The notes under the pieces were generated by a model, which did not search any database, was not told where the DNA came from, and saw only the letters and a program-made list of their open reading frames with translations. From an uncultured Clostridium sp. (GTDB taxonomy: Bacteria > Bacillota > Clostridia > TANB77 > CAG-508): a DNA stretch of 64,000 nucleotides. The position numbers and the translations under genes are program-made. Positions 6,611 to 52,198 of the stretch are shown in pieces (within the stretch, counting starts at the first letter, position 1; each line of letters starts with the position of its first letter). Location of the stretch: NCBI GenBank assembly GCA_947368535.1, contig CANBHY010000002.1, forward strand, positions 95,536-159,535. The letters run 5' to 3'.

Positions 6611-6750
6611 GTTCTTTCCTCTTCTTAATTCTTTTAAAATTGCTACACATATCATATCTTAATTTTCCAATTTAATCAAGCTTTTCACTTGACCAAATTG
6701 CTTCTTAGATATATTATAATTACAACTTACTAATAGATTGGAGATATTAA

Positions 6751-10552: not shown

Positions 10553-10581
10553 AATTACTCTCCTCTTTTGTATACTATATT

Positions 10582-12108
10582 TTATTTTGTATAAGTATTA
10601 AGTTCTACATTTTCATTCAAATGCCATGTTCCTATAAAATCAATATTTATACTATTATCTAATACAACTGATGGTTCAAGTAGTACTGCACCATTGCTTT
10701 GTAGTGCTCCCCATTTTCCATCCTTATTCACTGCTGCAAATCCAAATTCATTTTGTTCTCTAGCATCATCATAAATACATTCAACAACTTTTTCATTATT
10801 GCTATTTACATAACCATATTTACCATTTTCTTTTACTAAGAATAATGTATTTCCTTTAAGAGCATCTCTGTTGCTTATTTCTTGATATTGTAAATTATAG
10901 TACTTATATTCATCACCAACTCTTGCTCTTATATATCCCTTATCTGCATTAGCTTGACTAATTGTTCCTGTAAATACTAGTTTCAAATCACGTGTATATA
11001 CATCAGTTGTAAAATCATCGTTTTCACATACAAGTGAAGCAATATCACTTCTATATTCAATATTATTATATTTTACTTCTACTTTTATATTTTTTGCTAA
11101 ATCAATAACTCCATATTTTCCTGCTGTACTAACAATATAGTGCCCTGAAAAGCAACTCTTCATTGAATCAAAAGCTGCATCTATTATAACTGTTCCAGAT
11201 TTATCAATAACTCCATATTTTCCTATATTCTTGATAAGTAAATATTCACCATCAATAGATGTAATTTCTTCAAAGCCAGCATTTAATATTACTGTTCCGT
11301 CTTTAGAAATTAATTCTTTTCTTCCACCCTCTAATACTACATACATATCAGAACCAGAAACTTTATCAATTCCATCATATTTATTTTCTAAAATTACTTT
11401 ACCTTCAGATCCTACAAGCCCTATTTTTCCATTTACATCTGTAGTTATATACCCTTCATTATAAGTATCTCCAAAAGCCTCAATTGAAATATAGTTCTCA
11501 TCTAAAAATTTGGTTTTAGAAACACTATTAAATAATCCATATTTTCCATCTTTTTTTATAACCACTGTTTTAGTAATTCCCTGTAATGCTGTAATATTTT
11601 CATATTCAGGTGGTAATACTTGTTTACCAGCAAAATCAATTAATCCATATTTTCCATCTTTTTCAAAAGTTAATACTTCATTATCATACCAAACATCGTC
11701 TAAAGACTTATAATTTACAACAGCAGCTACATTATTATATTGTGAAAATAATTGTTCATTTTTTTCGTTAATTGCTTTTGTTTTAAAAGTTCCATTTGTA
11801 TAATCTACATCATATGTAGCTATAAATATATTTTTAGCCTCATCTGGAATTATAAGCATCTCATCATATACTATGTCAGTAAGTTGCTCTCCCTTACTAT
11901 TAATTACACTCCATTTTGAATCAATATAAGCTGAAAAATATTTAGTTACTCCATCATTAACAACTTGTTGATTACTTTTTTTGCGTATTATCATTATTAT
12001 TGAAGCAATAACCATAACTAAGACAATTATTGCTAATATTGTTGCTATAACTTTTTTTATATTTAACTTAGGTTCAGCATCAAACCTTCTTCCTCGATTA
12101 TTTCTCAT
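10582..12108 (-). CDS. WG-repeat (KWG-type) containing membrane-anchored protein
   Basis: N-terminal TM helix. At least 7 repeats of the DGKYGLI / NGKYGYV / DGKWGAL type. Confidence 0.6.
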   Translation of the reverse strand: MRNNRGRRFDAEPKLNIKKVIATILAIIVLVMVIASIIMIIRKKSNQQVVNDGVTKYFSAYIDSKWSVINSKGEQLTDIVYDEMLIIPDEAKNIFIATYDVDYTNGTFKTKAINEKNEQLFSQYNNVAAVVNYKSLDDVWYDNEVLTFEKDGKYGLIDFAGKQVLPPEYENITALQGITKTVVIKKDGKYGLFNSVSKTKFLDENYISIEAFGDTYNEGYITTDVNGKIGLVGSEGKVILENKYDGIDKVSGSDMYVVLEGGRKELISKDGTVILNAGFEEITSIDGEYLLIKNIGKYGVIDKSGTVIIDAAFDSMKSCFSGHYIVSTAGKYGVIDLAKNIKVEVKYNNIEYRSDIASLVCENDDFTTDVYTRDLKLVFTGTISQANADKGYIRARVGDEYKYYNLQYQEISNRDALKGNTLFLVKENGKYGYVNSNNEKVVECIYDDAREQNEFGFAAVNKDGKWGALQSNGAVLLEPSVVLDNSINIDFIGTWHLNENVELNTYTK

Positions 12109-25536: not shown

Positions 25537-28500
25537 ATGTCAGAATTATTACATGTAGGATTAGATGTAGGTTCAACAACAGTAAAAATCGTTGTAATGA
25601 ATGATAAACAAGAAACAATATATACAAACTATACTAGACACTTTTCAGATACAAAAAATACAATATGTAATGTCTTAGAACAACTATCAAAAGATTATCC
25701 AGATGCTACATATACAATGGCTCTTACTGGTTCTGGAGCCATGTCAGCAGCTAATTTTTTAAAAATACCATTTATACAAGAAGTTATATCTTGTAAACGA
25801 GCTGTTGAAAAATATTTGCCAGAAACTGATATCGTTATTGAATTAGGTGGCGAAGACGCTAAAATCATATATTTTGATAAATTTATTGAGCAAAGAATGA
25901 ACGGAACTTGCGCTGGTGGAACAGGTGCATTTTTAGATCAAATGGCATCATTATTAAATACCGATACAGCAGGACTTAACGAATTAGCAAAAAGCTATAA
26001 AGTTATTTATCCAATTGCATCAAGATGCGGTGTATTTGCTAAAACTGATGTACAACCACTTTTAAACGAAGGTTCTAGAAAAGAAGATATTGCTGCATCA
26101 ATTTTTCAAGCAGTTGTTAATCAAACTATCAGTGGTTTAGCTTGTGGCAGACCAATTAGAGGAAAGGTTGCTTTTCTTGGAGGACCACTTAGTTACCTTC
26201 CAGAGCTTAGAAAACGTTTTATAGAAACACTTGAATTAAAAGATAATGAAATTCTTATTCCTGAAAATGCTCATCTTTTAGTAGCTAAAGGAGCAGCTCT
26301 AGATTCATTAAATTCACCAGAATTTTCAAATTCTCAATTAAAAGAAAAAATTAAAGATTTAAAAGTTGCTAAAGATACGACTACTAAGCCATTAGATCCT
26401 CTTTTTTCTAACGAAGAAGAATATAAAAAATTCAAAAAAAGACATGACAAAGCAAAAATTAAAACAAAATCCCTAGAAAAATATACTGGTGACTGTTTTG
26501 TTGGAATTGATGCTGGTTCAACTACTACAAAATTAGTATTAATAGATACTGATAAAAATTTACTTTATTCTGACTATAAAAGCAACGAAGGCAATCCACT
26601 AAATAGCGTTATAAAAATGCTAAAATCTATGTATGAAAAATTACCTGAAACTGCTAGAATTAGATTTGCTGGAGTAACTGGCTATGGTGAAAAATTAATT
26701 CAAACAGCTTTAAATGTTGATTTAAATGAAATTGAAACAATAGCTCATTACACAGCAGCAAAAGAATTTATGCCAAATGTTACTAGTATCATTGATATTG
26801 GTGGACAAGATATGAAATACATAAAAATGAAAGAAGACGTTATAGACAATATAATGCTAAATGAAGCATGTTCTTCTGGATGTGGATCTTTCATTGAAAC
26901 TTTTGCTAAAAGTTTAGGTTTAACCATCGAAGAATTCGTAAAATCTGCTATTGATTCAAAGGCTCCTGTAGACTTAGGCTCAAGATGTACAGTATTTATG
27001 AACTCAAAAATAAAGCAAGCACAAAAAGAAGGTTACAGTGTTGGCGATATTTCTGCTGGTCTTTCTTTTTCAGTAGTAAAAAATGCTATTCAAAAAGTTA
27101 TGAAAGTCCGTGATATGAAAACTCTTGGAAAACACATTGTTGTACAAGGTGGAACATTCTACAATGATGCTGTTTTAAGAAGTTTTGAAATATTAGTAGG
27201 ACAAAATGTAATTAGACCAAATATATCTGGATTAATGGGTGCATACGGTGTTGCACTACTTTCTAAAGAACAATTTGAAGCAAATTTAGATATGGAATAT
27301 ACTTCAACATTACTAAAAACAGAAGAATTAGATAATCTAAACATAAAAACAACACAAGTACGTTGTGGAAAATGTGAAAATAATTGTCTATTAACCATAA
27401 ATAAATTTAATGATAGTAAATCATTTATATCTGGAAATCGCTGTGAAAAAGGAAGCGGTGGAATTACTGAAAACAAAAATCTACCAAACATGTATAAATA
27501 TAAATTTGAAAGATTATTTGGATATGAGCCATTATCTGAAGAAAAAGCCTTCAGAGGAACAATTGGAATACCTAGAGTTCTAAATATGTATGAAGATTAT
27601 CCATTTTGGTTTACCTTCCTAACAAACTTAGGATTTAGAGTAATTCTTTCAGAAAAAAGTACTAGAAAAACATATGAAAAAGGTATGGAATCAATGCCTT
27701 CGGAATCAGTATGTTACCCTGCTAAATTAAGTCATGGACATATAATGGATCTTCTAGAAAAAGGTATTAAAACAATATTCTATCCTTGTATTCCTTATTC
27801 AAGAAAAGAATATCAAAAAGCAAATAACCATTATAATTGTCCAATCGTAATATCATATTCAGAAGTACTTAAAAACAACGTAGAAGACCTTAAATCTGAA
27901 AATATTAAATTCATTAATACATTTTTACCTTTCGAGATAAAAAACCTCGTAAAAGTCATTTTAGAGCGTGATGAATTTAAAGAATATAATTTTACTAAAA
28001 AAGAATTAACTGAAGCAGCAAAAAAAGCAGAAGAAGAGTATCAAAATTTCAAAAATGATGTCGATAAAAAAGGTCAAGAAATACTAGATTATATGAACAA
28101 AAATGATTTACGAGGAATTGTTCTTGCAGGAAGACCATATCACGTAGATCCAGAAGTAAATCATGGAATTGATACATTAATAACTAGTTTAGGTCTATGT
28201 GTTCTTTCAGAAGACAGTATATCTAAAAAAACTGAAGCAAAAAGACCTATCAGAGTAGTTGATCAATGGGTATATCATGCCAGACTATATGCTGCAGCAG
28301 AATTTACAGGTCAACATGATAACTTAGAACTAATACAATTAAACTCTTTTGGATGTGGCGTTGATGCTGTAACAACAGACCAAGTAGAAGAAATATTAAA
28401 AAGTTATGAAAATATGTACACTCTAATCAAAATAGATGAAGTTAATAACTTAGGAGCAGTCAGAATACGTATTCGTTCACTACTAGCTAGTATGAATAAG

Positions 28501-29820
28501 AAAATAAAAGAAAAGTCAGAAAGACAAACTTGTGAAGATTGTAAGTCCGTAGGAGATTATGAACTTCACCCTATAGAGTTTACTAAAGAGATGAAAAAAG
28601 ACTATACTATTTTAATTCCTCAAATGGCCCCAATCCATTTTGAATTAATAGAAACAGCCGTTAAATCTTGTGGATATAATGTAGAGTTATTAAGAAATTG
28701 CACACCAAATACAGTTGAAACAGGATTGAAATATGTAAATAATGATGCATGCTATCCTTCAATTTTAACTACGGGTCAAATGATTGAAGCCTTAGAGTCA
28801 GGTAAATATGATCCAAATAAAACAGCCTTAATAATGTCTCAAACTGGTGGAGGTTGTAGAGCAACTAACTATATTGGATTTATAAGAAAAGCTCTAAAAG
28901 ACGCCGGTTTCTCACAAGTACCAGTTATATCATTTAATGTGGTTGGTATGGAAAAAATGTCTGGATTTAAAATTACAATTGGCTTAGCAGAAAGACTACT
29001 AAAAAGTGTTACCTATGGTGATTTACTTCAAAAATTATTAATGAAAAATCGCGCATACGAAATAAACAAAGGTGAAACAGAAAAATTATATGAAAAATGG
29101 TTACAAAAATGTAAACAATTAGTTAAAAAATCAAATAGTAAACAATTTAAACAAAGCATTTATGATATTGTAGAAGATTTTGAAAAAATAGAATTAGACA
29201 CAAGTATACCAAAACCTAAAGTTGGTATAGTTGGAGAAGTCTTAATAAAATATCATCCTTTTGGAAACAACTTTGTAGCCAACGTTTTAGAAAAAGAAGG
29301 TGCTGAAGTAATATTACCAGACTTTATGGGATTTATAAAATTTATAGCAACTCATAAAATAACATTTAATAAACTATTAAAAATAGATAAAACAAAAGCA
29401 ACCATCTTTAGAGCAGCTATAAAATTAATAGATATTTTTGAAAAAGATTTAAAAATTGCCTTATCAAAATCTAATAAAAACTACCTGCCACCTTGCGATA
29501 TCTGGCATTTAGAAAATAAAGTAAAAGATATTCTATCTATTGGAAATCAAACTGGTGAAGGTTGGTTCCTAACAGCAGAAATGGTAGAATATATAGAACA
29601 TGACATTCCTAATATCGTTTGTGTTCAACCATTTGCATGTCTTCCTAACCATATTGTTGGAAAAGGTGTAATAAAAACTATTAGAGAAACTTATCCAAAT
29701 GCTAATATTACACCAGTTGATTATGATCCTGGAGCAAGCGAATCAAACCAAACTAATCGATTAAAATTATTAATGACAGTTGCAAAAGATAATTTAAAAA
29801 CAGAACAAAATAAAAAATAA
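25537..29820 (+). CDS. acyl-CoA dehydratase activase-related protein (two BadF/BadG/BcrA/BcrD-type ATPase domains fused to an HgdB-like domain)
   Basis: Two ASKHA-type ATPase N-termini (LHVGLDVGSTTVKIV and CFVGIDAGSTTTKLVL), two Cys-rich segments, and a long C-terminal dehydratase-subunit-like region. 1427 aa. GGAG RBS. Confidence 0.75.
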   Translation: MSELLHVGLDVGSTTVKIVVMNDKQETIYTNYTRHFSDTKNTICNVLEQLSKDYPDATYTMALTGSGAMSAANFLKIPFIQEVISCKRAVEKYLPETDIVIELGGEDAKIIYFDKFIEQRMNGTCAGGTGAFLDQMASLLNTDTAGLNELAKSYKVIYPIASRCGVFAKTDVQPLLNEGSRKEDIAASIFQAVVNQTISGLACGRPIRGKVAFLGGPLSYLPELRKRFIETLELKDNEILIPENAHLLVAKGAALDSLNSPEFSNSQLKEKIKDLKVAKDTTTKPLDPLFSNEEEYKKFKKRHDKAKIKTKSLEKYTGDCFVGIDAGSTTTKLVLIDTDKNLLYSDYKSNEGNPLNSVIKMLKSMYEKLPETARIRFAGVTGYGEKLIQTALNVDLNEIETIAHYTAAKEFMPNVTSIIDIGGQDMKYIKMKEDVIDNIMLNEACSSGCGSFIETFAKSLGLTIEEFVKSAIDSKAPVDLGSRCTVFMNSKIKQAQKEGYSVGDISAGLSFSVVKNAIQKVMKVRDMKTLGKHIVVQGGTFYNDAVLRSFEILVGQNVIRPNISGLMGAYGVALLSKEQFEANLDMEYTSTLLKTEELDNLNIKTTQVRCGKCENNCLLTINKFNDSKSFISGNRCEKGSGGITENKNLPNMYKYKFERLFGYEPLSEEKAFRGTIGIPRVLNMYEDYPFWFTFLTNLGFRVILSEKSTRKTYEKGMESMPSESVCYPAKLSHGHIMDLLEKGIKTIFYPCIPYSRKEYQKANNHYNCPIVISYSEVLKNNVEDLKSENIKFINTFLPFEIKNLVKVILERDEFKEYNFTKKELTEAAKKAEEEYQNFKNDVDKKGQEILDYMNKNDLRGIVLAGRPYHVDPEVNHGIDTLITSLGLCVLSEDSISKKTEAKRPIRVVDQWVYHARLYAAAEFTGQHDNLELIQLNSFGCGVDAVTTDQVEEILKSYENMYTLIKIDEVNNLGAVRIRIRSLLASMNKKIKEKSERQTCEDCKSVGDYELHPIEFTKEMKKDYTILIPQMAPIHFELIETAVKSCGYNVELLRNCTPNTVETGLKYVNNDACYPSILTTGQMIEALESGKYDPNKTALIMSQTGGGCRATNYIGFIRKALKDAGFSQVPVISFNVVGMEKMSGFKITIGLAERLLKSVTYGDLLQKLLMKNRAYEINKGETEKLYEKWLQKCKQLVKKSNSKQFKQSIYDIVEDFEKIELDTSIPKPKVGIVGEVLIKYHPFGNNFVANVLEKEGAEVILPDFMGFIKFIATHKITFNKLLKIDKTKATIFRAAIKLIDIFEKDLKIALSKSNKNYLPPCDIWHLENKVKDILSIGNQTGEGWFLTAEMVEYIEHDIPNIVCVQPFACLPNHIVGKGVIKTIRETYPNANITPVDYDPGASESNQTNRLKLLMTVAKDNLKTEQNKK

Positions 29821-29825
29821 AAAAA

Positions 29826-29856
29826 ATGGATAACTTAGGTTATCCATTTTTTTTCG
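29826..29856 (+). terminator. rho-independent terminator of the activase gene
   Basis: TGGATAAC ttag GTTATCCA followed by TTTTTTTT. Confidence 0.75.
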
Positions 29857-31039
29857 CATTCTAGATAAAAATTTTTGTTTTCAAAATTATAAATATAAAT
29901 TTTATATAAATATCTTTAAAACATCAAGCATTTTTATAGAAAATCCCCTAAATATTTAAATATTACATCCACTTTTTCTATCCTATTTAACTCTTAATTT
30001 TATATATATAACAATTTTATCTTCAATCATTATATCATCTTTGTCTTTCACGTACTGTTTTTGTTTTGTTACATAAAAAATTGGCATCTAAAAAAAATTT
30101 TTCATTTTTCTTTTCAACATAAGTATTATTTTTAAAAGTTTAAAATAATTAATTTTTATCAGTGACTTTATATTAAAAAAAATAAAAAGCAAAATGTTTT
30201 AAAAAAAATACCCTAAATAATTCAATTTAAGAACATTCTTTTAATCTTTAAAAGCTAGTAAACATGGGAAATTTGTGCTAAAAAGATTATTTCAAAAATA
30301 TTTAAAATGTTGCAAACAAAAATCCTTGCAAAAATCGAATATTATATTTTAATGATAATTAACATTAACCTTTTGACAAAAATCAATTAAAACGGAAAAT
30401 AAAAGGTCAAATAATTTTATCTCAAAAAAATTTATGGACAACTCATCAAATCATAAAAATAGTGTAGCTTATATTTTTTTATCCTCTAAAATTTTTTCTC
30501 TATCATTTTTTATTAGTAATTATTTTCTTCAAAATTGCTTTTACTCTAAAAAATTTAATAAAAATAGCAATTATTACATAAAAAATATAAAATAATTATT
30601 ATAAAAATAATTAAATAATAAAAAATAATAATTATTCTTACTTTTTCGCATAAAAATACGATTTTTAAAGCATTTATTACAGTTAAATTCGAACATCTAT
30701 CAATATCAAATTTTCACTCTTTTAAAAACAAATTTCAGTAAAAAATAATTTTTTTCCTTAAATAGCAAAAAAAATTTTTTTCTCGATCAAAAATCCGAAA
30801 TTTTTTTAGTCAATATGATTTTCCCATATATCTCATCTAAATTACTAATTTAAAAAAAGCTATTATTCTAATCATTCATTTTAAAATTTATAAAATCTCA
30901 TCAAAAATATAAAAATATCACCATATACAAAATAGAAAAACTAAAATAATGCTTAATAAAATATAATCGCTATATTATAGGAAATAAGCAAACTAGCAGA
31001 TTTTATATAATTATGGATATGCTTCAAAAATAATATTAA

Positions 31040-31054
31040 TTGCCAAAAAAGTAG
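31040..31054 (-). repeat. 15-nt motif copy (reverse complement CTACTTTTTTGGCAA)
   Basis: Read directly from the sequence: TTGCCAAAAAAGTAG. Confidence 0.6.
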
Positions 31055-32458
31055 TTGTGCTCCTTTCTCTACATTCAGCATAGAAATGACAATTTAAAAT
31101 AGATAAATAAGTCATCTACTTTTTTAGAAATCTTGTTATTAAAATGAAATGACAAATCAAAAATGCACATTTTATAAAAATTTTATTGCTCTTATAAAAC
31201 AAATAGCATATTTTTATTTTTTAAAATAAAAACTCTACTTTTCATGAATTTTAAATTACAATAAAATAATATTTATAAAAAACGTATGTTTGTTTTTGAA
31301 TATTTTTTAAAAATATAGCCTTAAATTCTTCATTTATGTTATGTATACTTATTATTTTTTAAAAAATATCTAAAAATTCAACCTTAGTTATACCAAGCAT
31401 TTCAAATTTTATATACTTTAATATTCTTTCATCTACATTTATATTTACATAATTCTTAATAATATCAAATTACATCAATTTTTTTGATTACCCGATCTTC
31501 TCTATCATATACATATATTAAGTCAAAATATATTTTAAAAAAGACTAAAAATTAAAATTTTTATTTTTCTCTATGCATTTTTAAAAAATTTTAATTTTTA
31601 GACATACTTACTATTTTTTTAAATTATCCTACAAATTTAAAAATATTATAAAAAAGATAATTCTTAAAAAAATCACGTCAAAATTATCCATTTTTTAAAT
31701 TTATTCATTTTTATAATATTCAATCAAATATAGGATTTACAAGCTGTATACGTTTTTTATATAAATGTAATAATGAACTTTTCAAAATTGTTTGCAAAAA
31801 ATAAAATGAAAATCAGAGAAATATTTTTAGTTATTTTTGAGTCAATCAATAATAAAATTTTTTAATTAATTGGCAATTATTTTTATTTAAAATACATACC
31901 TATGACAAAAATAACTTAAAATATAATCCAATTAAAAAATACTTTAACTTTTTACCTTATTTTTAATTTTTATATCTATTTATTCAAAAATACTAAATAT
32001 TACACTAATATAGCATAATATTCAATTAATAATTTATTTATTTATTTTTTTAATGTAAACTTACTAAAAAAAGCTGCTTTTTTTGGTAAAAATCTATAAA
32101 ATTCATATATAGTATTACACTAAATATGATAATTTTTAAAAATTTTTCTAAAAATATACAAATAACACTACTCATTAATATATAAACCTACATTAAATTT
32201 TTTATATACCAAAACAATATATTTTTTAGTCATACGTTAATCAATCCTCTTTTTATGCTTCAAAAAATATTTTTTAATATTTTTTTCTCGTTTTCATTTT
32301 TAAAAATGCAAAATACATATTTTATTTATAAAAAAAAGTTTTAAAAAAATTATGCTTTTTTTCACTTTTAATGTCCAACTTCAATTCATTAAATATGCGG
32401 AAATAAAGATAATTCAAAAAACAGTATATTTTTATTATATATATTTTTTTTAATTTTA

Positions 32459-32473
32459 TTGTCAAAAAAGAAG
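32459..32473 (-). repeat. 15-nt motif copy (reverse complement CTTCTTTTTTGACAA)
   Basis: TTGTCAAAAAAGAAG. Confidence 0.6.
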
Positions 32474-34053
32474 TTTCAAATTATAACTGAATTAAAACTT
32501 TAATAGACAAAAAAAGAAGCATCTCATTTCAGTTACAAAACTAATTTCTATTCTTATTAAAGTAAATGACAAATAAAAACTGTAAAAAAGCAGTAATATT
32601 TTTTAATATATCTTTTTATCATTTTAAGAATGAAAATCGAAATTTGAAGCATAATTTAAAAATTACAAATTTTTTTCCAAAAAATAAATATAAAAAAATA
32701 AAATTTATTTTTTTATATTTATTTTTATTAAAATCTATTTTCCTCATTTTTGCTCTATTTTTTTATTTTTGAAAAATAATATCTTTAAGCTATCTATTAT
32801 TTTTAATTTGTTTCGCTTACCGCTCTAAGAGATAGTTAGCTAATCTTCAATTTTTAATCTCTCATGCAAATATATTTTTTAGACTAATTGCCAATATTTC
32901 CTTAAAATACTCTTTTTATAAAATATTACACTCTATTTTGACCAATTTATTTTCTTTTTATTATATAAAGATTTATAAAAATTTATAAAAATTTATTTAT
33001 ACAAAATCACCAATTTTTATAAACTAATTATTATTATTTAGGCAAAATATATTTTTTATCAATTTTTATTCTTTATTCTATAAATTTTATATATTTATAA
33101 ATTTGATAAAAATTTTTTATAATTCTTTACATAAAAATAATAATTTAAATTTTAATAAATCAAAGGAAAAAAAGATCAAAAATTAATTATTTTAAATTTT
33201 TTTAAGCTTAGGGTAAAACCGCAAAATCTTCGGAATATCAACCAAAAGAGCTATTTAATATATTTGTAAAAATTCTCCAAAAAAAATTCTTTGCAAAAAA
33301 ATAAAAATAAAAATAAAGCTAAAAAATATAAAACATAGTGACAATTAATTTATATTCCTCTCATATAAGATGTCAAACATTTTTATAAATTATAATTAAT
33401 GTAGACAAAGTATTTATATTTATTTATTAATAAAATCATCTTAGCTAAAAATTTTAACCCTATTTCATTTTTATAATTCAGATCATATAATTTCATATCT
33501 AACATAAATTTAATGGTAATAAAATGAAATATTACAAAAAAAAACTATTAAAATTATATTTTCAATTTAATTTGAATTAAAATATATACAAAAAGTCAAA
33601 AAATGATATTTTCAAAAAAATATAAAAAATAAAATTAATTAAATATTACAAAAAAAATATTATTTTTAAATAAATATTACCATTTTTTTAGTATCAAAAA
33701 GATGTTTAAATATACTACTTAAAAATTTATAAATTATATACAAATCATCACCTATTTTATGTAACCTAAAATTAATATTATTAGCAAAACATTTTAATAA
33801 ATTTTTATTTAATTTTTTTGTGTCCAAATAATCAACACAAATTTTTAAATATAGTTTTAAAAATTTTAAAAATAACTTTTTTTAATATTACAATTAGATT
33901 TAAAAAATGTACACATTTAAAAAAAATTTATTGAAAGACAAAAAATAGTAAAAATCAGTAATATTATTTTTTTTTGTTTTCTGTGAAAGTTGGGATATAA
34001 GTGATAAAGCCGTTTTAATAAATAAAATGAAAAATTTACTTTATTTTATAGCT

Positions 34054-34068
34054 TGTCAAAAAAGGAGA
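34054..34068 (-). repeat. 15-nt motif copy (reverse complement CTCCTTTTTTGACAA)
   Basis: TTGTCAAAAAAGGAG. Confidence 0.6.
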
Positions 34069-35129
34069 TTACTAATATAAGAAAAATGTATACTAATTGG
34101 ACAAAAAAACATTTAAAAATTTAAAAGAAAATATATTAATTAAAATAATTATTCAATTGAACAGACAAAATCTTTCTAAAAAAAGATTAAATATTCCCCA
34201 AAATGCTTTTCAGTATCGAATATATGTTCTCCACTCTTTAAAGTTAAATAAAATAGTAGTTTTATTTAACTTTAAATCAAAAAAAATTAATAATTCTAAT
34301 GTTACAATACACAGTTTTTTAAAAAATATTTTTTTCTATTTTTTTAATTATTTATCTATTTTTTTTAATTTTTTTTAATTATTTTTAATTATTTTTAATT
34401 ATTTAATTTATTATTATAAATAATTATTAATTTATAATAAAATATCTAATAATTATTTATTTAAATATAAAAAAAATCATAGCTAGATATCCTAAATAAA
34501 TTTTTTAAACTATATGCATGAAACGCATGTGAAAATTTTTAGCCCTTATTTTCGTTTTTAATCAATTTTATTAAAAAAAAGTACCAATAATATTAATATT
34601 ATTAATAGATATTTACGTATTATAATGAAAAATTGATAAAAAAAAGAACCCAAATCATAAATTAATTGGATTCTACAATAAAATAAAGCTCATTTATGTG
34701 TAAATACATAAATCATCTCTCATAATTATCAATACTTTAATTATATTTTATAAATTAACTGTATAACAATTGCTTATTAAAATATAATTATGTAAAAATA
34801 ATTATTGATTAATAATCATTTTTTAAACTATGAAAAATAATTAAATAATTAAAATAAAATATTATTGATTAATTTAATAAATATTTAACATTTAATTCTA
34901 TAAAAATTAAATCATATTTATTAAATTTTTATAGAATTATTCTAAAATTATTAGTCAATAATAATGTTTTATTTGTATCCATTTTCCTGTTTCAACACAC
35001 TATACATATTTCACATTTTTTGTCTATATAATATAAACTTATGCAAAAAGTATTGTTTTTTAAGAAAATTTTATATGAATTTGATCATTTTTTTGTCTGA
35101 TATTAAAATTTTTTTATTAATTATTATCT

Positions 35130-35144
35130 CTACTTTTTTGACAA
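35130..35144 (+). repeat. 15-nt motif copy CTACTTTTTTGACAA
   Basis: Exact. Preceded 38 nt upstream by TTTTTTTGTCTGA. Confidence 0.65.
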
Positions 35145-36139
35145 ATATTAAAAGTTCAGCTTTGTGATTATTATCTATATTTATTAATATATCTGCATTA
35201 TATAATATTCGTACAAATTTATTGTTATAGATTTTTAAATTTAAAACTACATTTTCTTTTAATTATTTTCCACTATTTTATAAAATTTCCTAAAAATGAA
35301 TTTTTTTTCTTATAATCTTATATAAATTTGTATTCAAAAAACAATATTTTTTATTATCATCATTTAGTATTAATAACTTAGTAAATAATTGTATTTTTTT
35401 TACAAAAATTATAATAAATTATCCACAGATAATATCAAACAAGTTTTCTCTTATCAAAAATATTTTTTCTAATTATTTCAAATATATTTTTATTTTTTTA
35501 TATTTTTTATTAATTATTTTTAATTTATTTTTATTTTTTATTTATTTATTTTTATTTATTTATTTTTATTTATTTATTCCATGCACAAATTTATATATTT
35601 TTTACTTCAAAAATTAAAACCCTGGTTCCAAATTAATTCCAATTTATATATATTAATCTTTCTAAAATTTTTTTACATTATATCTCTTTTTATAGTCCGG
35701 ATAAAAAATAAAATTCCAAATTTAAATATTATTTTTTTCATACCTCTCTCTTACTATAGTATCACATACAAATTTTAATTCATATATTACTAATCATTTT
35801 AAATATTTTAATCTCTCAATTTATATATTTTTAAATTAATTATTTATATTTTTTCAATAATTATTAAAAAAATAATTAAAAATAATAAAAAAATAAAAAT
35901 AATTATTTTATTTATGAAAATTTTTCGTAATATTAAATTTTATATTATCAAAATATGTTTTTATTGATTTTATTGATCAGATCTATAAATTTTAAAATTA
36001 TGTACTAAATTATTATTTTATATAGTTTTTTTGTCTAGTTGGCAGCTGAATAAACATTTTGAGCATACAATTAATCATTTAATGTCAAAAAATGCTGTTT
36101 TTTTGTCTAGCTACGAAATAATTTTAATATTTCACAATT

Positions 36140-36154
36140 CTACTTTTTTGACAA
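36140..36154 (+). repeat. 15-nt motif copy CTACTTTTTTGACAA
   Basis: Exact. Preceded by TTTTTTTGTCTAG at 36095 and 36026, and by an inverted TGTCAAAAAAT at 36074. Confidence 0.65.
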
Positions 36155-37083
36155 AAGTTTTTACTGTTTTTTTATTATTGATGCATGTATTCATTGATAT
36201 ATAGATGTTTGACGTCATATATGTTTAAAATAGATTTTGTTTTTTGTAAAATTTTCAAATTTTCCTTCCTAATATATTTTATATTAAAAAATTTTTTTCA
36301 CTTTTATAGCTTTTAATCCTAAAAAAAAGAAAATTTTTTGAAAATTCCTTCCAAAAAATTCAATTTCATATTTTCACAAATTTCTTTACTTTCGCCATTA
36401 AAAAAACTATTATTCTAACCTTTAAGAATAATCAAATAATTAATAAAAGTATTACAAAAATAAAAAGATATTTTTACTAATTATTTTTATTTTTTTATTA
36501 TTTTTCTAAAATAAATTAATTAATTCTATTTTTTTATTTAATTTTTTTATTTAATTAAAATATATTTTCACTCATTTAATAAATTGCACTTTGATTTAAT
36601 ACCTTTTAAAAATTTTTTTATAAATAAGTTTCATAATTATAGAAATAGTAGATCAAGTTGAACTATACTTTATCAATATTTATATTTTTCTATATATTTT
36701 TCCATTTCTTTAAAACATTGAACTTATTTTTATTATAATATTTTTTATATAATTATAAAATTAAACTTATATAATAAAATATTTAATATTATTTTTCCAT
36801 AATTAATTAAAATATTATTTAAAAATAAAATAATAAAATAAAATTATTAATCTTTTATTTTATATTTATATAATATTTATTTATTATTTATGATACTGTA
36901 ATTTTCTCACTTCTTTTCAATAAAAATACACTATTTATTATCTATAACATTTCGGTTTAAAAAACTAGTATTTTTGTCTTTTAAATTATATATTGTTCTC
37001 ATTGTAACTTTTTTATATTATATTTCAATAAAAATATAATATTTTCTTGTCTTATATTTATTTTTTTTAACCATATTTGTTAT

Positions 37084-37098
37084 CTACTTTTTTGACAA
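37084..37098 (+). repeat. 15-nt motif copy CTACTTTTTTGACAA
   Basis: Exact. Confidence 0.65.
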
Positions 37099-38099
37099 TT
37101 TTTATTCACATCACATTAAGTGTTCACCATATTTCCTTTGAAATTTGTGAGTTTCATGAATTTTATCTTAGAAAATTTATATATTTTTCAAATTCTATTA
37201 TTATATTCATCATATTTTAATTTATAAAAATTCTTAAAAACTTAATATTCCGTTTTAAAAAACAATTTTTAGAAAATTTACTAAGAATTTTTTAATAAAA
37301 TTTTACTATCTAAATTTCTCCAATTTTAAGGCCTTTTTTATATCAAAATTTATAACAATATAAATTATCTTTTTACTATATTAATATTTCATTTTTTTAA
37401 ATTTAATATTTTTATTTTTCATATTTTTTTAATATTTTTCTATTTATTATTTATATTTATTCTTTATTTTATAATTAATTTAAATTAATTATTTATTTAT
37501 TAAAAATTGTATATACTTTTGTATACATAATTATTTTTAAGATCAAAAATTGATCTTTTTTTTAATATTTTCTTATATGAAAATTTATAAAAGAAGATTT
37601 ATTTATACTTTTTTTATAATATTGGAATAAAACTTCTAAAATTTTAAAAATATCTTTTTATTTTTAAACTAAATTTTTATAAAAAAAGCAAAATTATATT
37701 TAGATTTTTAATAATACAAAATAAATTTTACTATTAATAAAAAAAATATCTAAAAAAATAATAATAAATTATAAAAAATTAAAATATTTTTTGTAATAAA
37801 TTTTAATTTTTATTTTCATCAATAAATTAAATTTTGAATATATTTTTATAATATTATTGGAATAAATTTCATAATTTTATGCAACTTTGAATACTCAATA
37901 ACATAACTTTTTTTACTTTAGAAGTTTTCTTCTGGCTAAATTTTCATTCACACTTTTTCACAATTCTTTCTACAATACTTCAGAGTATTTTGTCTTATGT
38001 ATATTTATTCTTCTATAACAGAACTTATATAATTCAATTTTTTATATTTTTTAGTTCATTTTTTGTCTAATATAAAATATTTTTGTTTATTTCTTAAAT

Positions 38100-38114
38100 C
38101 TACTTTTTTGACAA
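38100..38114 (+). repeat. 15-nt motif copy CTACTTTTTTGACAA
   Basis: Exact. Preceded 36 nt upstream by TTTTTTGTCTAA. A possible -10 TATTAT lies 17 nt after the embedded TTGACA. Confidence 0.65.
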
Positions 38115-39273
38115 ATATTTTTTAATATCCTATTATATATATTCGATATAAGTCCCATATTTAAAGTATTTTGAACTATTACTATACTTTTTAATTACTA
38201 CCTTTTCTTAATTTTTATTAAATAATTTATAATTTTTAAAATTATAAATTATACACTTAATCAAATTCGATTTATTTTTAAAGAAATTTAAAACACATTA
38301 TTCAAATTTTCTAAAAACTTTCTATCTTTTATTAAAAATCTCATATGTATATGTTTTCAAAACACATTCGTACATATGTTCTTAATATTTTTTAGTCAAA
38401 TTGATATGTTATAGTATATTCTTATTAATTACTTTTTTTAATTAAATATAACAACATATTTTGATATTTATTTTAATACATAAAAACTAATAGATTATAT
38501 TTTTATTTTTCTATATTTTATTATTTATTTATTATTATTTTTTTTATATTTATCTTTATTTTAAATATATTTTTTATTTTTTAAAAAAATATATTTTTTT
38601 ATTCCCTCAACTAATATAAAATTTTTCATTTTTTCCATATTATTCTTTATTTTAAATTTATAAATCAAAACTTTAAAATTTTTTCCTAAAATTTTTAAAT
38701 AAAGATACTTATTTCTTACAAATTTAATTTGATATTTTCTAATCTTTTTTCATAATCAGCAATTTTAAAAAAATAATTAAAGAATTTTTTTTTATTTTTT
38801 TAATAAATCCATTTTTTTATATTAACATTCAATTCATTTTTTATAAAATATAAATAATTATTCCTAATTTTTAATATATTTTTTTGTTTTTTTATTTTTA
38901 TATCAATTTATAAAATATTTATTAATTTAAATACTTTTTAAAAAATTAATTACTACGCATTTATTTTCTTAGTTTCAAATTTTGTACTACTCATTCTTCT
39001 TAAATTTGACCAGTTATATATATATGAATTTATATAAGATTTACTTGTCATTCTGTCAATATTTCTCTAACTATAATTAATACTTTATTTATGTTAGTCG
39101 ACAAATACCAAACATATTTTCTTAACTACTTCTATAAAATTTATTTACCCTCATTCTATTTTTATACTTATTTCCCTTTTAAATATATTACTTTTTCTTA
39201 CTTTAGCCATTTTATTAGTTACTTACTCTAATTTTCTTGACTAAAAAATTTATATTTTTTAATTTTCTCTAAA

Positions 39274-39288
39274 CTACTTTTTTGTCAA
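39274..39288 (+). repeat. 15-nt motif copy CTACTTTTTTGTCAA (variant)
   Basis: One mismatch. Preceded by TTCTTGACTAAAAAA. Confidence 0.55.
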
Positions 39289-41080
39289 ACATTTTTTAAA
39301 TAGTATCTTTAATAATATTCTATAACTCCCTATTTATAAAGATTTCATAAGTATACTCAATATAATCATGATCCATTTTTTCTATTTTAAGCATGCTTTT
39401 ACATTAATTTTAAAATTATAAATTATAAAAACTCTCTTTTTAAAAAAAATCTACTAATACAACTGCAAAGAAATTTCTAATCTAACTTTAAACATATTTC
39501 TAATCTCAAATTTTTTTTTGTCGTTTTTTCATTTATTCGAATTAAAAACGCAACCTAGTCAAATTGATAATAATTTATTCTTATCTTATTCATTTTTTAT
39601 TTCATTACTGCGAACAAATGTATTCGCATACATCTTTGATTAAAAATTTTTTTCTTCAGATAAAACTATTCTCTTTTATAAATATTCTGTATAGTTTTTA
39701 TTTAAAAACATTTTTTATTATTTATTTTATTTTTTGATATTTATTTCCTTATTTAAGTTTTTCAACGCATTATTTTCGTTTTTTTTTTGATTTTTATAAA
39801 AATTTCAAGTAATTATATTCCAAATTTCTATCAGTAAATAGTCTAAAATAATAATTTATTATATTTTTTACTGTTTATTTTATTATTTGATTATAAAAAC
39901 ATTTATAAATAAAAAATAAAAATATTTATTTTTTATTTTTTTAAATGTAATATTAAATGTATTTCATTTATTATTTATATTTTATATTAATAAATATCAT
40001 ATTGATCTATTTAATATGTTTTTTTATATTAATAAAAAAACATTGTCTAAAACATTAAAAATATCTTTTTTTAATGCTCATTTTTTATATTTTATTGTCT
40101 ATTATCTTAATATTTTTCCATTTTTTTCTTTCTACTTATTTGTCAATGAATTTTTGCCATTAAAAAACGCATTTAATATAAATCCTCTAATATCAACACT
40201 TTAATACTTATTTATATATTTTTTCTTAATATTTTTATACCAAACTTATTTATTCATTTAATCTTTCATTAATTTTATTAAAAATTTTCTTTTTTAAGCC
40301 TCTAAAAAAATATAAAAAAATTTACTAATCTACTTCTCAAATTAATCAATTTTTTTTATGCTATTTTTCACATACTATTATTTAATTATTCTTTTTTGAT
40401 ATTATAATTTCTAATTTTCATGTAATATTTTCCATATCTTTTATCTTTATTTTTTAATTAAATTTTATAATTACAAAATAAATTTCATTTATTTATTTTA
40501 TTTTTTTATATTTTTTAAATATTGATATATCAGCAAAAAATTAATTTAAAATTATTTATTAATTATTTTTTCGATATTTTTTTAATTAATTAATATTATT
40601 AAAATATTTACTTTTCAATATGTAATATACCTCTTATTTTCCTTTATTTAAAAGCATTCTACGATGTAACAATTAACATTTAAAAATTTATTTTAATTTT
40701 ATTTTTTTAATTATTCATGAAATTATTAAAAAATATTTTTTAATAATTTTTAAAATTAACTTTTCTATTTTTAAAATTCACATTTTATACACAAAAAAAT
40801 ATAAAATAATTTTAAATAAAAAATTTATTTTATATTTTAATATTATTTCCTATTTTTTTTATATTTAGTTTTTTAATATCAATTTACGATAAATATATAT
40901 CATTTTCCAAGCCTCTAAAATCGTCATATTTTGATTTTCAATATAAACAAATAATATATGTCATATTAGTATATATTTATATTATTTTTGGATTCTCGTA
41001 GCTTCTATATTATTTTTTAAAATTAATACATAATAAACAAAATATATAAAAAAAAAGATAGTACATTCTTGTACTATCTT

Positions 41081-41172
41081 TGGCGGAGATTGAGGGATTT
41101 GAACCCTCGCGGCCCTAAACGAACCCTAACAGTTTAGCAAACTGTCCCCTTCAGCCACTTGGGTAAATCTCC
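41081..41172 (-). tRNA. tRNA-Ser (anticodon GCU)
   Basis: The reverse complement reads GGAGATTTACCCAAGTGGCTGAAGGGGACAGTTTGCTAAACTGTTAGGG...GGGTTCAAATCCCTCAATCTCCGCCA. Anticodon loop is TT-GCT-AA. Long variable arm, T-loop GGTTCAAATCC, encoded CCA. Confidence 0.85.
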
Positions 41173-41211
41173 GTATAATTATAAAGCTAGATAGTATTTC
41201 ATATCTAGCAT

Positions 41212-41303
<92 letters not shown>

Positions 41304-41356: not shown

Positions 41357-41836
41357 TTATATTTTTTTCAACTCTTTTGCTTTATTTAAGGCACTTATCT
41401 CTTCCTCTGATAAAGTTTGTAAAGAATTACCATTCTCTATTCTTTTAGCATATACATTACTAGAAGATCTGCCATATACAGAGTTTATAATAAACCCATT
41501 ATCTTTATTATCTAATAAAGCAATTGCAAAACTCAACTTACTTCCAACATCATCAAAAGCATCATATTTTACTATTCCAATATTTTGAAAGCATTCATTT
41601 AACTGTTTTTCAAGGCTTTTGTAATTTGATTTTATAATTTTGTTTTCCTCATTTACATTATTTACCATTTTTTCTATTTCTTTAAACGTATTCTCTATAT
41701 TTTCGTCAGAATTAAATTTGGATATAAATTCAGAATAATGTTTTTCTATATTTTTTAGCTTAAAAATAAATAATAATATAATAGCAGTTAACACTACATT
41801 AACTGCTATTGATCCTATTAAAATAGCACTTTCCAT
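41357..41836 (-). CDS. DUF4446-like membrane-anchored protein (conserved neighbour of parB in Clostridia)
   Basis: N-terminal TM helix and a coiled-coil segment. C-terminal region has a VKYDAFDDVGSKLSFAIALLD...NGFIINSV pattern. Confidence 0.5.
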   Translation of the reverse strand: MESAILIGSIAVNVVLTAIILLFIFKLKNIEKHYSEFISKFNSDENIENTFKEIEKMVNNVNEENKIIKSNYKSLEKQLNECFQNIGIVKYDAFDDVGSKLSFAIALLDNKDNGFIINSVYGRSSSNVYAKRIENGNSLQTLSEEEISALNKAKELKKI

Positions 41837-41848
41837 TCAAATGTCTCC

Positions 41849-42688
41849 TTATTTAATTAAATCTAGTATGCGCTCTAAATCATCATTTGATGCATATTCT
41901 ATGATAATTTTTCCTTTTCTCTGTCCTGCATTTAATTTAACTTTTGTACCAAAGAAACTTTGAAAGCTACTCTCTATGTCTCTATAAATTGGTTCATATT
42001 TTTCGTTCTTTTTTGGCATTGTTTTTCTTGATTTTGTTTTCTTTTCTGCTTCCCTTACACTATCTCCAGATTGTATCATATAAATAGCCATATCATATTG
42101 TTTGTCCGGATTTTCAAAACCTAGTAATGCTTTACAGTGCCCTTCTGTCAACTTTCCTTGTAATGCTAAATCAATAACTCTTGGATCTAAATTTAATATT
42201 CTCAAAGTGTTTGTAATTGTACTTCTACCTTTTCCAATCACTTCTGCAACCTGAGCTTGAGTTAAATTATATTGATCCATTAATAACTTGATTCCTCTAG
42301 CCTTTTCTATAGGATTTAAATCTTCTCTTTGTATATTTTCTATAAGTGCAATCTCTCTATTTTTCTTTTCGTCATTTTCTCTAACAATTACAGGAATTTC
42401 CTCTAAACCTGCTTTTTTAGAAGCTCTCCATCTTCTTTCTCCTGCCACTATTTGATAAAAATCATCTTTTTTAGAAACTATTATAGGTTGAATAACACCA
42501 TAATTTTTAATAGATTCTGCTAATTCATTTAAGGATTCTTCATCAAATATCCTTCTTGGTTGATCTCTATTTGGTTCTATTTCTGAAATTTTTAAATTTT
42601 GTACAACCTCATTCTCTTGCGGTTCTTCTACAATAGATGTTGAAAAAAGAGCATCTAAACCTTTTCCTAAACCTGTTTTTTTAGCCAT
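41849..42688 (-). CDS. parB: chromosome partitioning protein ParB/Spo0J
   Basis: ParB box (IVAGERRWRASK) and an HTH region. Position immediately downstream of parA. Confidence 0.9.
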   Translation of the reverse strand: MAKKTGLGKGLDALFSTSIVEEPQENEVVQNLKISEIEPNRDQPRRIFDEESLNELAESIKNYGVIQPIIVSKKDDFYQIVAGERRWRASKKAGLEEIPVIVRENDEKKNREIALIENIQREDLNPIEKARGIKLLMDQYNLTQAQVAEVIGKGRSTITNTLRILNLDPRVIDLALQGKLTEGHCKALLGFENPDKQYDMAIYMIQSGDSVREAEKKTKSRKTMPKKNEKYEPIYRDIESSFQSFFGTKVKLNAGQRKGKIIIEYASNDDLERILDLIK

Positions 42689-42699
42689 TTTTATTCCTC

Positions 42700-43488
42700 C
42701 TATTTCATATGTTTTGGTTTATCTTTTGACTCTTGCATTTTTAAAAACTCTTTTGCCAATCTCTCATAACTCTTAGCTCCTTTAGACTTTGGATCATATG
42801 TAGTTATTGGCATTCCATAACTTGGTGCTTCACTAAGTCTTACGTTTCTTGGTATAACAGTTTTATAAACTTTATTATCAAAATACTTTTTAACTTCCTT
42901 TACAACTTGATTAGATAAATTTGTTCTTATATCATACATTGTTAGTATAGCACCTTCAATTTCTAATGTTTTATTTAAATGTTTTTTAACTAAATTTATC
43001 GTATTAATAAGTTGTCCTAATCCTTCTAATGCATAATATTCACATTGTACAGGTATTAAAACAGAATCAGCAGCAGTAAATGAATTTAAAGTTATTAAAC
43101 CAAGTGAAGGTGGACAATCTATAAATATATAATCAAATTTATTTTTAATTGTATCCAATTGTTCCTTCAATCTATGTTCTCTAGACATCTGTGATACTAA
43201 CTCTACCTCTGCACCAGCTAAATTTACATTTGAAGGGCATATTTTTAAATTTTTTTCTACAGTATTTTGTAATGTATCTTCTACGGAGTCCTCATTTATT
43301 AATACATCATATAATGATTTTTCGAAATTTTTTTCTACTCCTAAACCACTTGTAGCATTTCCTTGAGGATCTGCATCTAATAAAAGAACTTTTTTGCCTT
43401 TTTTAGCAAGTAAAGCACTTAAATTAACTGATGTTGTAGTCTTTCCGACTCCTCCTTTTTGATTAGCAATTGCTATAATTTTTCCCAA
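42700..43488 (-). CDS. parA: chromosome partitioning ATPase ParA/Soj
   Basis: Deviant Walker A KGGVGKTT. Length 262 aa. Confidence 0.9.
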   Translation of the reverse strand: MGKIIAIANQKGGVGKTTTSVNLSALLAKKGKKVLLLDADPQGNATSGLGVEKNFEKSLYDVLINEDSVEDTLQNTVEKNLKICPSNVNLAGAEVELVSQMSREHRLKEQLDTIKNKFDYIFIDCPPSLGLITLNSFTAADSVLIPVQCEYYALEGLGQLINTINLVKKHLNKTLEIEGAILTMYDIRTNLSNQVVKEVKKYFDNKVYKTVIPRNVRLSEAPSYGMPITTYDPKSKGAKSYERLAKEFLKMQESKDKPKHMK

Positions 43489-43639
43489 AATAATCCCTCC
43501 AATCTTTCTTTATTATAATATAAAAATTATAATCCTCTGTCAATAAAATTTATAATTATTTTACCCATATTTTTATTTTTTTAATATTTTTATCCTCAGA
43601 TTTTTAAATTTTTTAAAATATTTATACACAAAAATGTGA

Positions 43640-43700
43640 AAATGATAAAAAATTATCCACAGATTATCAACATTTTATCAACAGGTTATCTGTGGAACAT
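43640..43700. promoter_or_regulatory. DnaA-box cluster between parA and rsmG
   Basis: Perfect TTATCCACA at 43653-43661. Two TTATCAACA boxes (one mismatch each) at 43664 and 43675. TTATCTGTGGA at 43686. Confidence 0.55.
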
Positions 43701-51856: not shown

Positions 51857-52198
51857 ATTTGATAAAACTTATATATCAATTTTATCGAATTTTTTATAAA
51901 AAAAGGTGTTTTACGAACAAAAGTATTATCAAAAAAATTCAATTTGTTCCTACGGAAGAGCAAGAAAAGATATCAACAGATTAGTGTTTAAAACGTGTTA
52001 AATTTCTGTTTATAATCAACATATGCACATAAAAAGTTTAATAATGTGGATAAATTTATTTTTTATTCACAGGTTTATAAACATCAAATTTTCTGCGGAT
52101 ATAAACAATAAACAGACTTTTCCACAGAATCCACACCACCTAATACTAATACTACTATATATATTTATATTATTTTATAAAAAAAGGAGTTTGAAAAA
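51857..52198. promoter_or_regulatory. oriC: dnaA-dnaN intergenic DnaA-box cluster plus AT-rich DNA-unwinding element
   Basis: TGTGGATAA (perfect box, reverse orientation) at 52045-52053. TTATTCACA at 52063. TTTTCCACA at 52117. AATCCACAC at 52128. Then a pure A/T tract (CTATATATATTTATATTATTTTATAAAAAAA) immediately before dnaN. Confidence 0.7.

Follow-up and report, generated by a model that had tools for sequence, protein, structure and literature searches.

Several well-studied bacterial systems depend on non-coding cis sites that are repeated close to a partition locus or a replication origin. The sopC region of F (12 repeats of 43 bp), the parC region of R1, the parS sites and the ram sites of RacA in Bacillus subtilis are all of this kind, in that many docking sites lie beside parAB or the origin and are gathered into one complex. 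A second group, represented by datA of Escherichia coli and the DnaA-box clusters of B. subtilis, consists of clustered sites in non-coding DNA near oriC whose dose doubles right after initiation. The array described here would be like both groups in these respects. It lies in a 64,000-nt stretch of the chromosome of an uncultured Clostridium sp. (contig CANBHY010000002.1 of assembly GCA_947368535.1, positions 95,536 to 159,535; hereafter the window), for which the source records give mouse gut as the habitat. The array occupies a gene-free, ultra-AT-rich block of 11.26 kb (29855..41053), about 10 kb from dnaA, and all of its nine modules are inside this block. The modules are a real, selected cis-element, and they may be docking platforms for a protein.

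Each module contains a 15-mer, CTACTTTTTTGACAA, termed site C. In the window this 15-mer has nine matches with at most two mismatches, compared with 0.78 expected, and none of them is outside the AT-rich block. Four copies are exact (R1 to R4 in Table 1) and five carry one or two mismatches (R5, R6 and L1 to L3). The six modules on the plus strand (35130-40146) are on the right and the three on the minus strand (31040-34067) are on the left. Therefore, the array consists of two opposed arms, with the change of strand near 34.5 kb. Some 1-1.6 kb of DNA lies between modules, and unit length is roughly kept, at 0.8-1.6 kb.

Upstream of site C are two further sites, A and B. The reference point for all distances is the G in the TTG(T/A)C core. 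Site B is present in nine of nine copies, with its G 45 nt before the 15-mer G in eight of them and 46 nt before it in one. Site A is at -117 or -118 in the four exact plus-strand copies, at -107 to -109 in the three minus-strand copies and at -97 in the module at 40132. The A-B distance is mostly 62-64 or 72-74 bp, which amounts to 6 or 7 helical turns. The B-C distance is 45-47 bp across species, and 45 bp is about 4.3 turns. The motif common to the sites is C-T6/7-G-W-C, in direct orientation. R5 is the sole copy changed on both sides of the B:C core.

A scan of the 64 kb for pairs of TTG[TAG]C cores at a distance of 44-47 nt returned only the nine modules and the positions 39057 (minus strand) and 49186. 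Core pairs at this spacing number 10 in the block versus 0.06 in shuffles. The shorter motif TTTTTGWC occurs 21 times in the block versus 1.35 times in shuffles (maximum 6), and its strand follows the arm: eight of eight copies left of 34.1 kb are on the minus strand and 12 of 13 right of 35.0 kb are on the plus strand. The tenth core pair in the block (38994-39057, minus strand, 45-nt spacing, TATTTGTCGAC ... ATATTGACAGA) lies about 230 nt upstream of R5 and is oriented against the right arm around it. Chance could have produced it, or it may represent a degenerate, inverted module.

An initial annotation of this DNA had drawn attention to the 15-mer and to a conserved element upstream of it, and both are real. 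It placed the two 36-38 nt apart. That the spacing is fixed stands, but the true value is 45 nt from G to G (46 nt once) and is far more exact. This offset, found in eight of nine copies, speaks against a random placement of the upstream occurrences, and the shuffle counts for TTTTTGWC speak against a motif that is frequent by chance in T-rich DNA. The distance of about 3.5 helical turns was an underestimate. The core had also been described as bipartite. The B and C pair is indeed there, but the third site, A, makes the core tripartite, and what had been listed as related forms at 36971, 35018 and 37975 are the A sites of the same modules. Positions were right to within a few bases (the site placed at 36095 starts at 36098) except for the site placed at 37975, which starts at 37988, whereas the unit at 37084, which had been left without an upstream element, has its own -45 site, TTTCTTGTCTT, at 37043. 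Finally, the half-sites were taken to be direct repeats. The shared C-T6/7-G-W-C motif agrees with this, but TTGTC and GACAA, the 5-nt cores, also read as each other's reverse complement, which makes the direct reading one of two.

Table 1. Modules of the array (R, right arm; L, inverted left arm) and genes around it. G positions are those of the site cores, with the distance from the G of site C in brackets.
Feature	Position	Strand	Site A	Site B	Site C	Remarks
R1	35016..35144	+	TTTTTTGTCTA (G 35022, -118)	TTTTTTTGTCTG (G 35095, -45)	CTACTTTTTTGACAA (35130-35144, G 35140)	
R2	36027..36154	+	G 36033 (-117)	G 36105 (-45)	36140-36154	
R3	36970..37098	+	G 36976 (-118)	TTTCTTGTCTT (G 37049, -45)	37084-37098	
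R4	37986..38114	+	G 37992 (-118)	G 38065 (-45)	38100-38114	
R5	39233..39288	+	none found	TTTCTTGACTA (G 39239)	CTACTTTTTTGTCAA (39274-39288)	variant; central base swapped in both B and C
R6	40039..40146	+	AACATTGTCTA (G 40045, -97)	TTTATTGTCTA (G 40097)	CTACTTATTTGTCAA (40132-40146)	degenerate
L1	34053..34172	-	G 34166 (-109)	G 34102 (-45)	CTCCTTTTTTGACAA (34053-34067)	
L2	32459..32576	-	TTATTTGTCAT (G 32570, -107)	G 32508 (-45)	CTTCTTTTTTGACAA (32459-32473)	
L3	31040..31159	-	G 31153 (-109)	AAATTGTCAT (G 31090, -46)	CTACTTTTTTGGCAA (31040-31054)	
BcrAD_BadFG/DUF2229 gene (1427 aa)	25537..29820	+				array boundary opposite the tRNA genes lies at its 3' end; this gene and the parB operon converge
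Two tRNA-Ser genes (GCT, TGA)	41081..41303	-				origin-side array boundary in every relative examined
DUF4446, parB, parA	41357..43488	-				adjoin the array
dnaA	50501-51856	+				followed by dnaN, recF and gyrB on that side

Aligning modules on the 15-mer, as had been proposed, gives conserved A, B and C sites. The profile was built from 17 modules of three species aligned on site C. Site B reads TTTTtTTGTCt, and site C reads CT.CTTTTTTGACAA followed by a loose T-run. A short T-run midway between B and C (TTT at -28 to -26) is invariant, and A, T and T at -21, -20 and -18 from the site C G are conserved in at least 75% of the modules. Altogether, 25-30 scattered positions per module are near-invariant. 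The DNA between modules is not conserved, in agreement with the initial annotation. Units of the window do not align to each other, and a repeat scan gives only short low-complexity repeats; each unit also has T-rich and A-rich low-complexity tracts. No other k-mer common to the unit bodies rises above the shuffle level (16 units, 800 nt of body), with TATTTCC borderline. On the T-rich strand G makes up 4%, and G is preceded by a T-run in 19% of cases versus a background of 16%. Nonetheless, every module keeps invariant G and C positions.

How constrained the sites are can be seen by comparison within and between species. Contigs of the same species (L001-L003, L040) have arrays that are 95-98% identical. 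Across five same-species sequences there are no single-nucleotide polymorphisms (SNPs) in the 120 nt of C sites where 5.3 are expected, one in the B sites where 4.3 are expected, and thus one versus 9.6 in B and C together. Between the window and the sister species L005 the arrays are 54% identical in a gapped global alignment, with near-identity over the tRNA genes. In every pairing, module flanks and spacers are 0.41 identical without gaps, hardly more than the roughly 0.39 expected from composition, whereas the 15-mer is 0.89 identical. Since the flanks are at background, the 15-mer is kept and SNPs avoid the sites, it is the sites that are selected. The conclusion of the initial annotation that this reflects selection and not recent duplication is strongly supported for the lineage of the window, but it does not extend to relatives from the human gut, in which recent duplication does occur (see below). 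In short, the modules of about 130 bp have kept their geometry to the base pair while their surroundings turned over fully. In bacteria, non-coding DNA under such constraint is usually an essential cis-element, for example an origin, a centromere or a recombination site.

The same organization is present in the sister species. L005 (to which L123 is 97.8% identical) has a DUF4446 protein 89% identical to that of the window, and its locus is at least 9.7 kb of DNA with a G+C content of 13-15%, with modules about 1 kb apart and an arm switch as in the window. The B-C distance is 45-47 nt in seven of seven modules, and site A is at -98 to -120. In a third species, L113 (75% DUF4446 identity), there is one module with B exactly 45 nt from C. 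Individual modules can even be matched by position. The outermost left modules (L3 in the window) both carry the GGCAA and TTGTCAT variants, and the innermost left modules (L1 and its counterpart) share TAT(A/T)TCCCAA..TTTCAC downstream, where TATATCCCAACTTTCAC and TTTTTACTATTTTTTGTCTTT are common to the two. Right-arm 15-mers all begin with CTAC in the species of the window and with CTTC in the sister species. This parallel difference suggests gene conversion or concerted change among modules, or perhaps co-evolution with the protein that reads them.

At other loci the module does not recur in the collections scanned. A metagenome scan with TTTTGTCT-N33-37-CTTTTTTGACAA returned 96 stretches, and the only two with multiple hits (L014 and L040) are both this locus, in the two species (that of the window and its sister). 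A scan of a viral collection with the bipartite pattern returned singletons only. These scans, which covered these collections but no complete genome of the organism and so are not exhaustive, argue against a dispersed mobile element, such as a miniature inverted-repeat transposable element or the end of an insertion sequence. They also bear on the idea that the modules are cis sites of recombination or mobility, either integron-like cassettes or multi-site transposon ends, and that the array was built by site-specific insertion beside tRNA-Ser. Such an origin would account for units of about 1 kb that have unrelated bodies, one conserved imperfect inverted-repeat site each and a uniform orientation within each arm. 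The array does adjoin tRNA genes, which are a classic integration target, and the spread of three direct sites across about 130 bp is reminiscent of Tn7 or Mu, whose ends have multiple sites. However, the ORFs (open reading frames) of at least 120 aa in the window contain no integrase, transposase or recombinase domain in Pfam or NCBIfam (two short overlapping frames aside), and inspection of the array by eye showed no direct repeats derived from the tRNAs, although no search for them was made. A resolution site present as direct repeats would have its copies deleted through the action of its own recombinase. The same site variants in positional counterparts of two species point to long-term stability instead of turnover. 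A role in mobility is therefore improbable.

The resemblance to integron attC arrays deserves a closer look. In both cases units of about 0.5-1 kb with unrelated bodies share a uniform orientation and a retained site with inverted cores at a set distance. Here, however, the cores are TTGTC/GACAA and not RYYYAAC/GTTRRRY, there is no extended hairpin, the units have no ORFs and the window contains no intI or other recombinase gene. In addition, there are two opposed arms, which are stable across species. The half-sites of serine invertases of the Hin/Gin type (GGTTTTTGATAA) likewise combine a T/A-tract with a short G-containing core, and TTTTTTGACAA differs from TTTTTGATAA at one core base. This likeness hints at how such a site might be read, and no membership is claimed; the array lacks an adjacent inverted half-site, a 2-bp crossover core and a recombinase gene.

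More distant relatives show how such a locus might arise. All relatives fetched together span DUF4446 identities of 47-100%, and every one has a gene-free block of 11-17% G+C between tRNA-Ser and the BcrAD gene; the flank on the BcrAD side is likewise present in L103, L110-L112 and L116. In relatives from the human gut (L103, L104, L110-L112) the block consists of true tandem repeats, with units of 0.9-1.2 kb and 85-93% identity between them. Its size in five contigs, including about 0.3 kb of tRNA genes, is 2.1, 3.0, 3.1, 8.3 and at least 7.6 kb, and many short-read contigs of these relatives end within the array. ParB is identical in sequence in L103 and L104 (P0008) and among L110-L112 (P0006). 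The units carry clusters of T-tracts with GTC or GAC at fixed spacings of their own (39/43/32 in H1 and 32/62 in H2), mostly near whole helical turns. In the complete array of L110, all 14 sites share the same strand. Judging from these comparisons, the locus evolves by tandem amplification and then decay, with only the site modules held in the lineage of the window. The differences in copy number in the human gut amount to a natural dose series.

Two short elements besides the module sites recur in this clade. One, GCTTATTTCC(C), lies downstream of site clusters clade-wide with its strand following the arm. In the window it is at 30980 and 32399 (minus) and at 39168, 39741 and 40843 (plus), and it also occurs in L104, L108, L113 and L116. 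It is lengthened to TTATTTCCTATAnTnTAGC in both module L3 of the window and the H2 units. The other, TGTAATATT(T), mostly follows a T-run and has eight copies where about one is expected by composition (six at 29967-33892 on the minus strand, and 39946 and 40421 on the plus strand). Its orientation follows the arm, and each unit of the human-gut arrays has one or two copies. In L118 (60% DUF4446 identity) the array has a different unit of about 0.95 kb that is rich in short repeats of the TTTTNATTTC type, and a DUF4190/zinc-ribbon gene (10471-11093) is located between the two tRNA-Ser genes.

Could the shared motifs simply be what is left of the duplications? They might be the slowest-decaying relics of an old tandem duplication, or a likeness maintained by gene conversion, with no function at all. 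Tandem duplication does shape the locus in relatives, and the species-specific CTAC and CTTC indicate some concerted evolution. However, decay would have to bring flanks and spacers to the compositional background while sparing the near-invariant positions and their base-pair-exact spacing. Conversion tracts limited to three separate patches of 10-15 nt are implausible, and the within-species SNP depletion at the sites also speaks against this. An account in terms of relics is scarcely credible. A recent tandem repeat of the satellite type can be discarded for the window, where the units do not align and flank identity is at background.

The tentatively preferred reading is that the modules are cooperative docking platforms for one sequence-specific DNA-binding protein, which would form an origin-proximal nucleoprotein array. 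The asymmetric motif, the exact distances, the ladder of T-runs between and after the sites and the retention of rare G and C positions all argue for docking at the level of DNA. As in a cluster of protein sites, short motif copies are found at fixed, mostly helically phased distances and are conserved against a neutral background. Further support comes from the exact B-C spacing in nine of nine modules of the window, seven of seven of the sister species and the one of L113. If so, the recognition unit would be C-T6/7-G-(T/A)-C, with the T-tract probably read via the minor groove and the GWC core via the major groove. Three sites at fixed distances could allow several protomers to bind cooperatively on bent DNA. 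Nine such modules, spaced by unconstrained DNA at mutational-equilibrium AT content, would then make up a multi-site nucleoprotein array beside parAB. The most likely role of such a structure would be to organize or anchor an origin-proximal domain, or to titrate the binding protein in step with replication.

Several observations do not fit this proposal easily. No candidate binding protein was found, and none of the known motifs compared (Spo0A box, parS and DnaA box) fits. At 45 bp, B and C are not a whole number of turns of the helix apart. Dimeric regulators usually have sites with dyad symmetry, which is missing here. A weakly conserved TATwTT 19 nt after site B would be compatible with a promoter. 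In the two most distant relatives, L116 and L118, there are AT-rich units at this locus in which the motif is not enriched, so the block may have a role that is independent of the motif. Finally, strains from the human gut with the same ParB protein sequence have from about one to at least seven units, and dose is thus under no tight constraint. Across the array as a whole, A/T tracts gave no clear signal of helical periodicity (z at most 3).

The complementarity of the B and C cores leads to a different possibility. B and C might pair (TTTGTC with GACAAA) in single-stranded DNA or RNA, and a short stem closing a 38-nt loop would then be read as a structure by a strand-specific recombinase or nuclease, in priming or another replication function, or by an RNA-binding factor. 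Each 5-nt core is the exact reverse complement of the other, and the distance between them is fixed. Complementarity is kept in R5 (39274), where the central base is changed on both sides (TTGAC/GTCAA), and GGCAA in two modules is compatible with a G-U pair. In the alignment 84.6% of cells pair, versus 35-53% with the 3' partner slid by 1-3 columns, and the minimum-free-energy fold joins B to C in most copies. However, four of the five core pairs are invariant, there is one compensatory event, and the observed covariation score is equalled or exceeded in 37 of 500 shuffles. The stem is 5-8 bp and, on either strand, the fold is weak (-2 to -10 kcal/mol, mean z about -0.6). A central mismatch interrupts the stem in R6, and site A, the conserved CTWC and the T-tracts are not accounted for by it. 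Moreover, the human-gut lineages keep T-tract and GWC sites without complementary pairs at a fixed distance. Recognition as a hairpin is therefore unlikely.

Perhaps the modules are promoters. In this scenario each would be weak or activator-dependent, with site B (TTGTCT) as the -35 element and TATwTT 19 nt downstream; transcription would begin near CTAC in the 15-mer and run outward from the centre of the array, giving a non-coding RNA of about 1 kb with the 15-mer as its conserved 5' leader and no constraint on the rest of its sequence, and site A would bind the activator. Sequences like the -35 element of sigma-A promoters are indeed present, given that site C contains a perfect TTGACA in 11 of 17 modules and site B has TTGTCT. 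Several modules have TATATT, TATAAT or CATATT exactly 19 nt after TTGTCT, and the conserved A (-21), T (-20) and T (-18) agree with this. The composition of the strands in each arm tracks module orientation, with the T-rich strand as sense, and the rough maintenance of unit length would suit a transcript. A 19-nt spacer is poor for sigma-A, however, and -10-like hexamers at 16-18 nt are not enriched (score of at least 4 in 0.12 for B and 0.24 for C versus 0.28 at random). An ordinary sigma-A promoter can be rejected, as the mean best -10 scores are 1.65 (C) and 1.59 (B) versus 1.89 at random positions on the same strand. A generic promoter scan gives 151 sites versus 152.5 in shuffles. The putative start region in L005 reads CTTC, without a purine, and sequence downstream of the modules is not conserved. 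There is also no terminator at a consistent position in the unit, including hairpins of the AT-only kind.

Sigma-A promoters with upstream activating sites, such as rrn P1 with its UP element and FIS sites, are a known system that partly resembles this arrangement. The likeness consists of TTGACA of site C after an A/T tract and of upstream sites in phase. The difference is that here there is no -10 element at 16-18 nt and no downstream gene or conserved RNA. Neither a known RNA nor a protein appears to be encoded. Rfam at the gathering threshold finds only the two tRNAs in the window, with no match to the array at E of 1 or below, and in the L104 array likewise nothing besides tRNAs. None of the 294 stop-to-stop frames of at least 20 aa gave a tblastn match better than E = 0.005 against six related arrays. 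The promoter scenario is doubtful overall.

The block has a G+C content of 0.134-0.169 versus 0.26-0.29 in its flanks, its longest ORF is 93 aa, and there are terminator-like hairpins at both ends (29819-29854 and 41054-41081). Its limits are the stop of the BcrAD/DUF2229 gene on one side and the tRNA-Ser pair on the other. The window as a whole is bacterial chromosome around a replication origin, with the sign of the GC skew changing at about 50-52 kb. The array extends 10-20 kb from oriC and adjoins parAB, on a side of the origin where rpmH, rnpA, yidD, yidC, jag, mnmE, mnmG, rsmG, parA, parB and the DUF4446 gene are all on the minus strand. The same side has smc (3065-6655), about 25 kb from the array. 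Beyond the origin, between gyrB and gyrA, there is a gene for a TraG-like P-loop ATPase (57902-59491) with three ORFs that have no Pfam match; this region (57303-61151) may be a small inserted island.

A location so close to the origin raises the possibility that the modules are polar signals in replication or segregation, either conditional fork-pausing sites, with the arms like the halves of a fork trap, or an anchoring centromere used in sporulation. The two opposed groups of oriented sites are reminiscent of Tus/Ter and RTP/Ter, the array is 10-20 kb from dnaA/oriC beside parAB, and sporulation genes are nearby (spoIIE, spoIIR, gerM-like and spmAB-like). However, known traps are at the terminus and not next to the origin, where a trap would block the leftward fork. 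Their motif is unrelated, and some relatives have only one orientation, as in the complete array of L110. GC skew passes through the array unchanged. No homologue of Tus, RTP or RacA was seen, although none was specifically looked for. Polar signalling of this type is quite improbable.

Membership in a described class of origin-proximal arrays was examined more directly. For ParB centromeres, the parS 16-mer TGTTNCACGTGAAACA with at most three mismatches has one match in 64 kb (with three mismatches, outside the array) versus 1.08 expected. No parS-like 16-mer beyond chance was found anywhere in the 64 kb around oriC, including the inside of parB, and there is no repeated palindrome containing G or C in the window. 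The single ParB homologue scores best against the model for Noc, but below its cutoff. A DnaA-box cluster of the datA type can be rejected as well, with three boxes like TTATCCACA at one mismatch or fewer (one perfect and two near) in the 11.3-kb array. The perfect box is at 35419-35427, between R1 and R2, and is probably due to chance because it is isolated. Real DnaA-box clusters are located at 43590-43683 and at 52045-52126 (dnaA-dnaN). The former, between rsmG and parA, has five box-like sequences in 94 bp (one perfect and four with one mismatch), and there is another perfect box at 43890. As for Spo0A, whose box has the core TGTCGAA, none of the 21 TTTTTGWC sites of the array reads GTCGAA; GTC is followed mostly by T and then A or T.

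What does this mean for the biology of these organisms? Genomes of relatives are about 1.4 Mb (one contig is 1,405,955 bp), and 2-11 kb of gene-free DNA beside the origin is unusual there. A literature search on large tandem repeats in AT-rich intergenic DNA close to clostridial origins gave nothing relevant. One speculative view, to be held with considerable doubt, is that the array represents an undescribed class of cis-element, in which a kilobase-spaced series of tripartite docking sites and a lineage-specific protein build a centromere-like or anchoring domain. It might then serve in origin capture or positioning in spore-forming gut Clostridia with small genomes, in parallel with RacA and ram in Bacillus, with the number of modules set through tandem amplification. 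No known class fits, and identification of a binding factor might uncover a mode of organizing or regulating the origin region that is new for Firmicutes. The locus is also a clean example of selected sites within DNA at mutational equilibrium.

The comparison with the systems named at the outset can now be completed. In the tests that were run, the array does not qualify as a member of the centromere-type or titration-type arrays, nor as an integron attC array, a promoter or an Rfam RNA. Compared with the partition arrays, its modules are spaced by kilobases and not by tens of bp, its sites are tripartite and asymmetric instead of 16-bp palindromes, it has no parS-like sequence and nothing ties ParB to the motif. 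Compared with datA and the DnaA-box clusters, the motif is not a DnaA box and the array is ten times larger. Nevertheless, by analogy the array would seem to work most like the centromere-type or titration-type site arrays, among them sopC, parC, ram, datA and the DnaA-box clusters.

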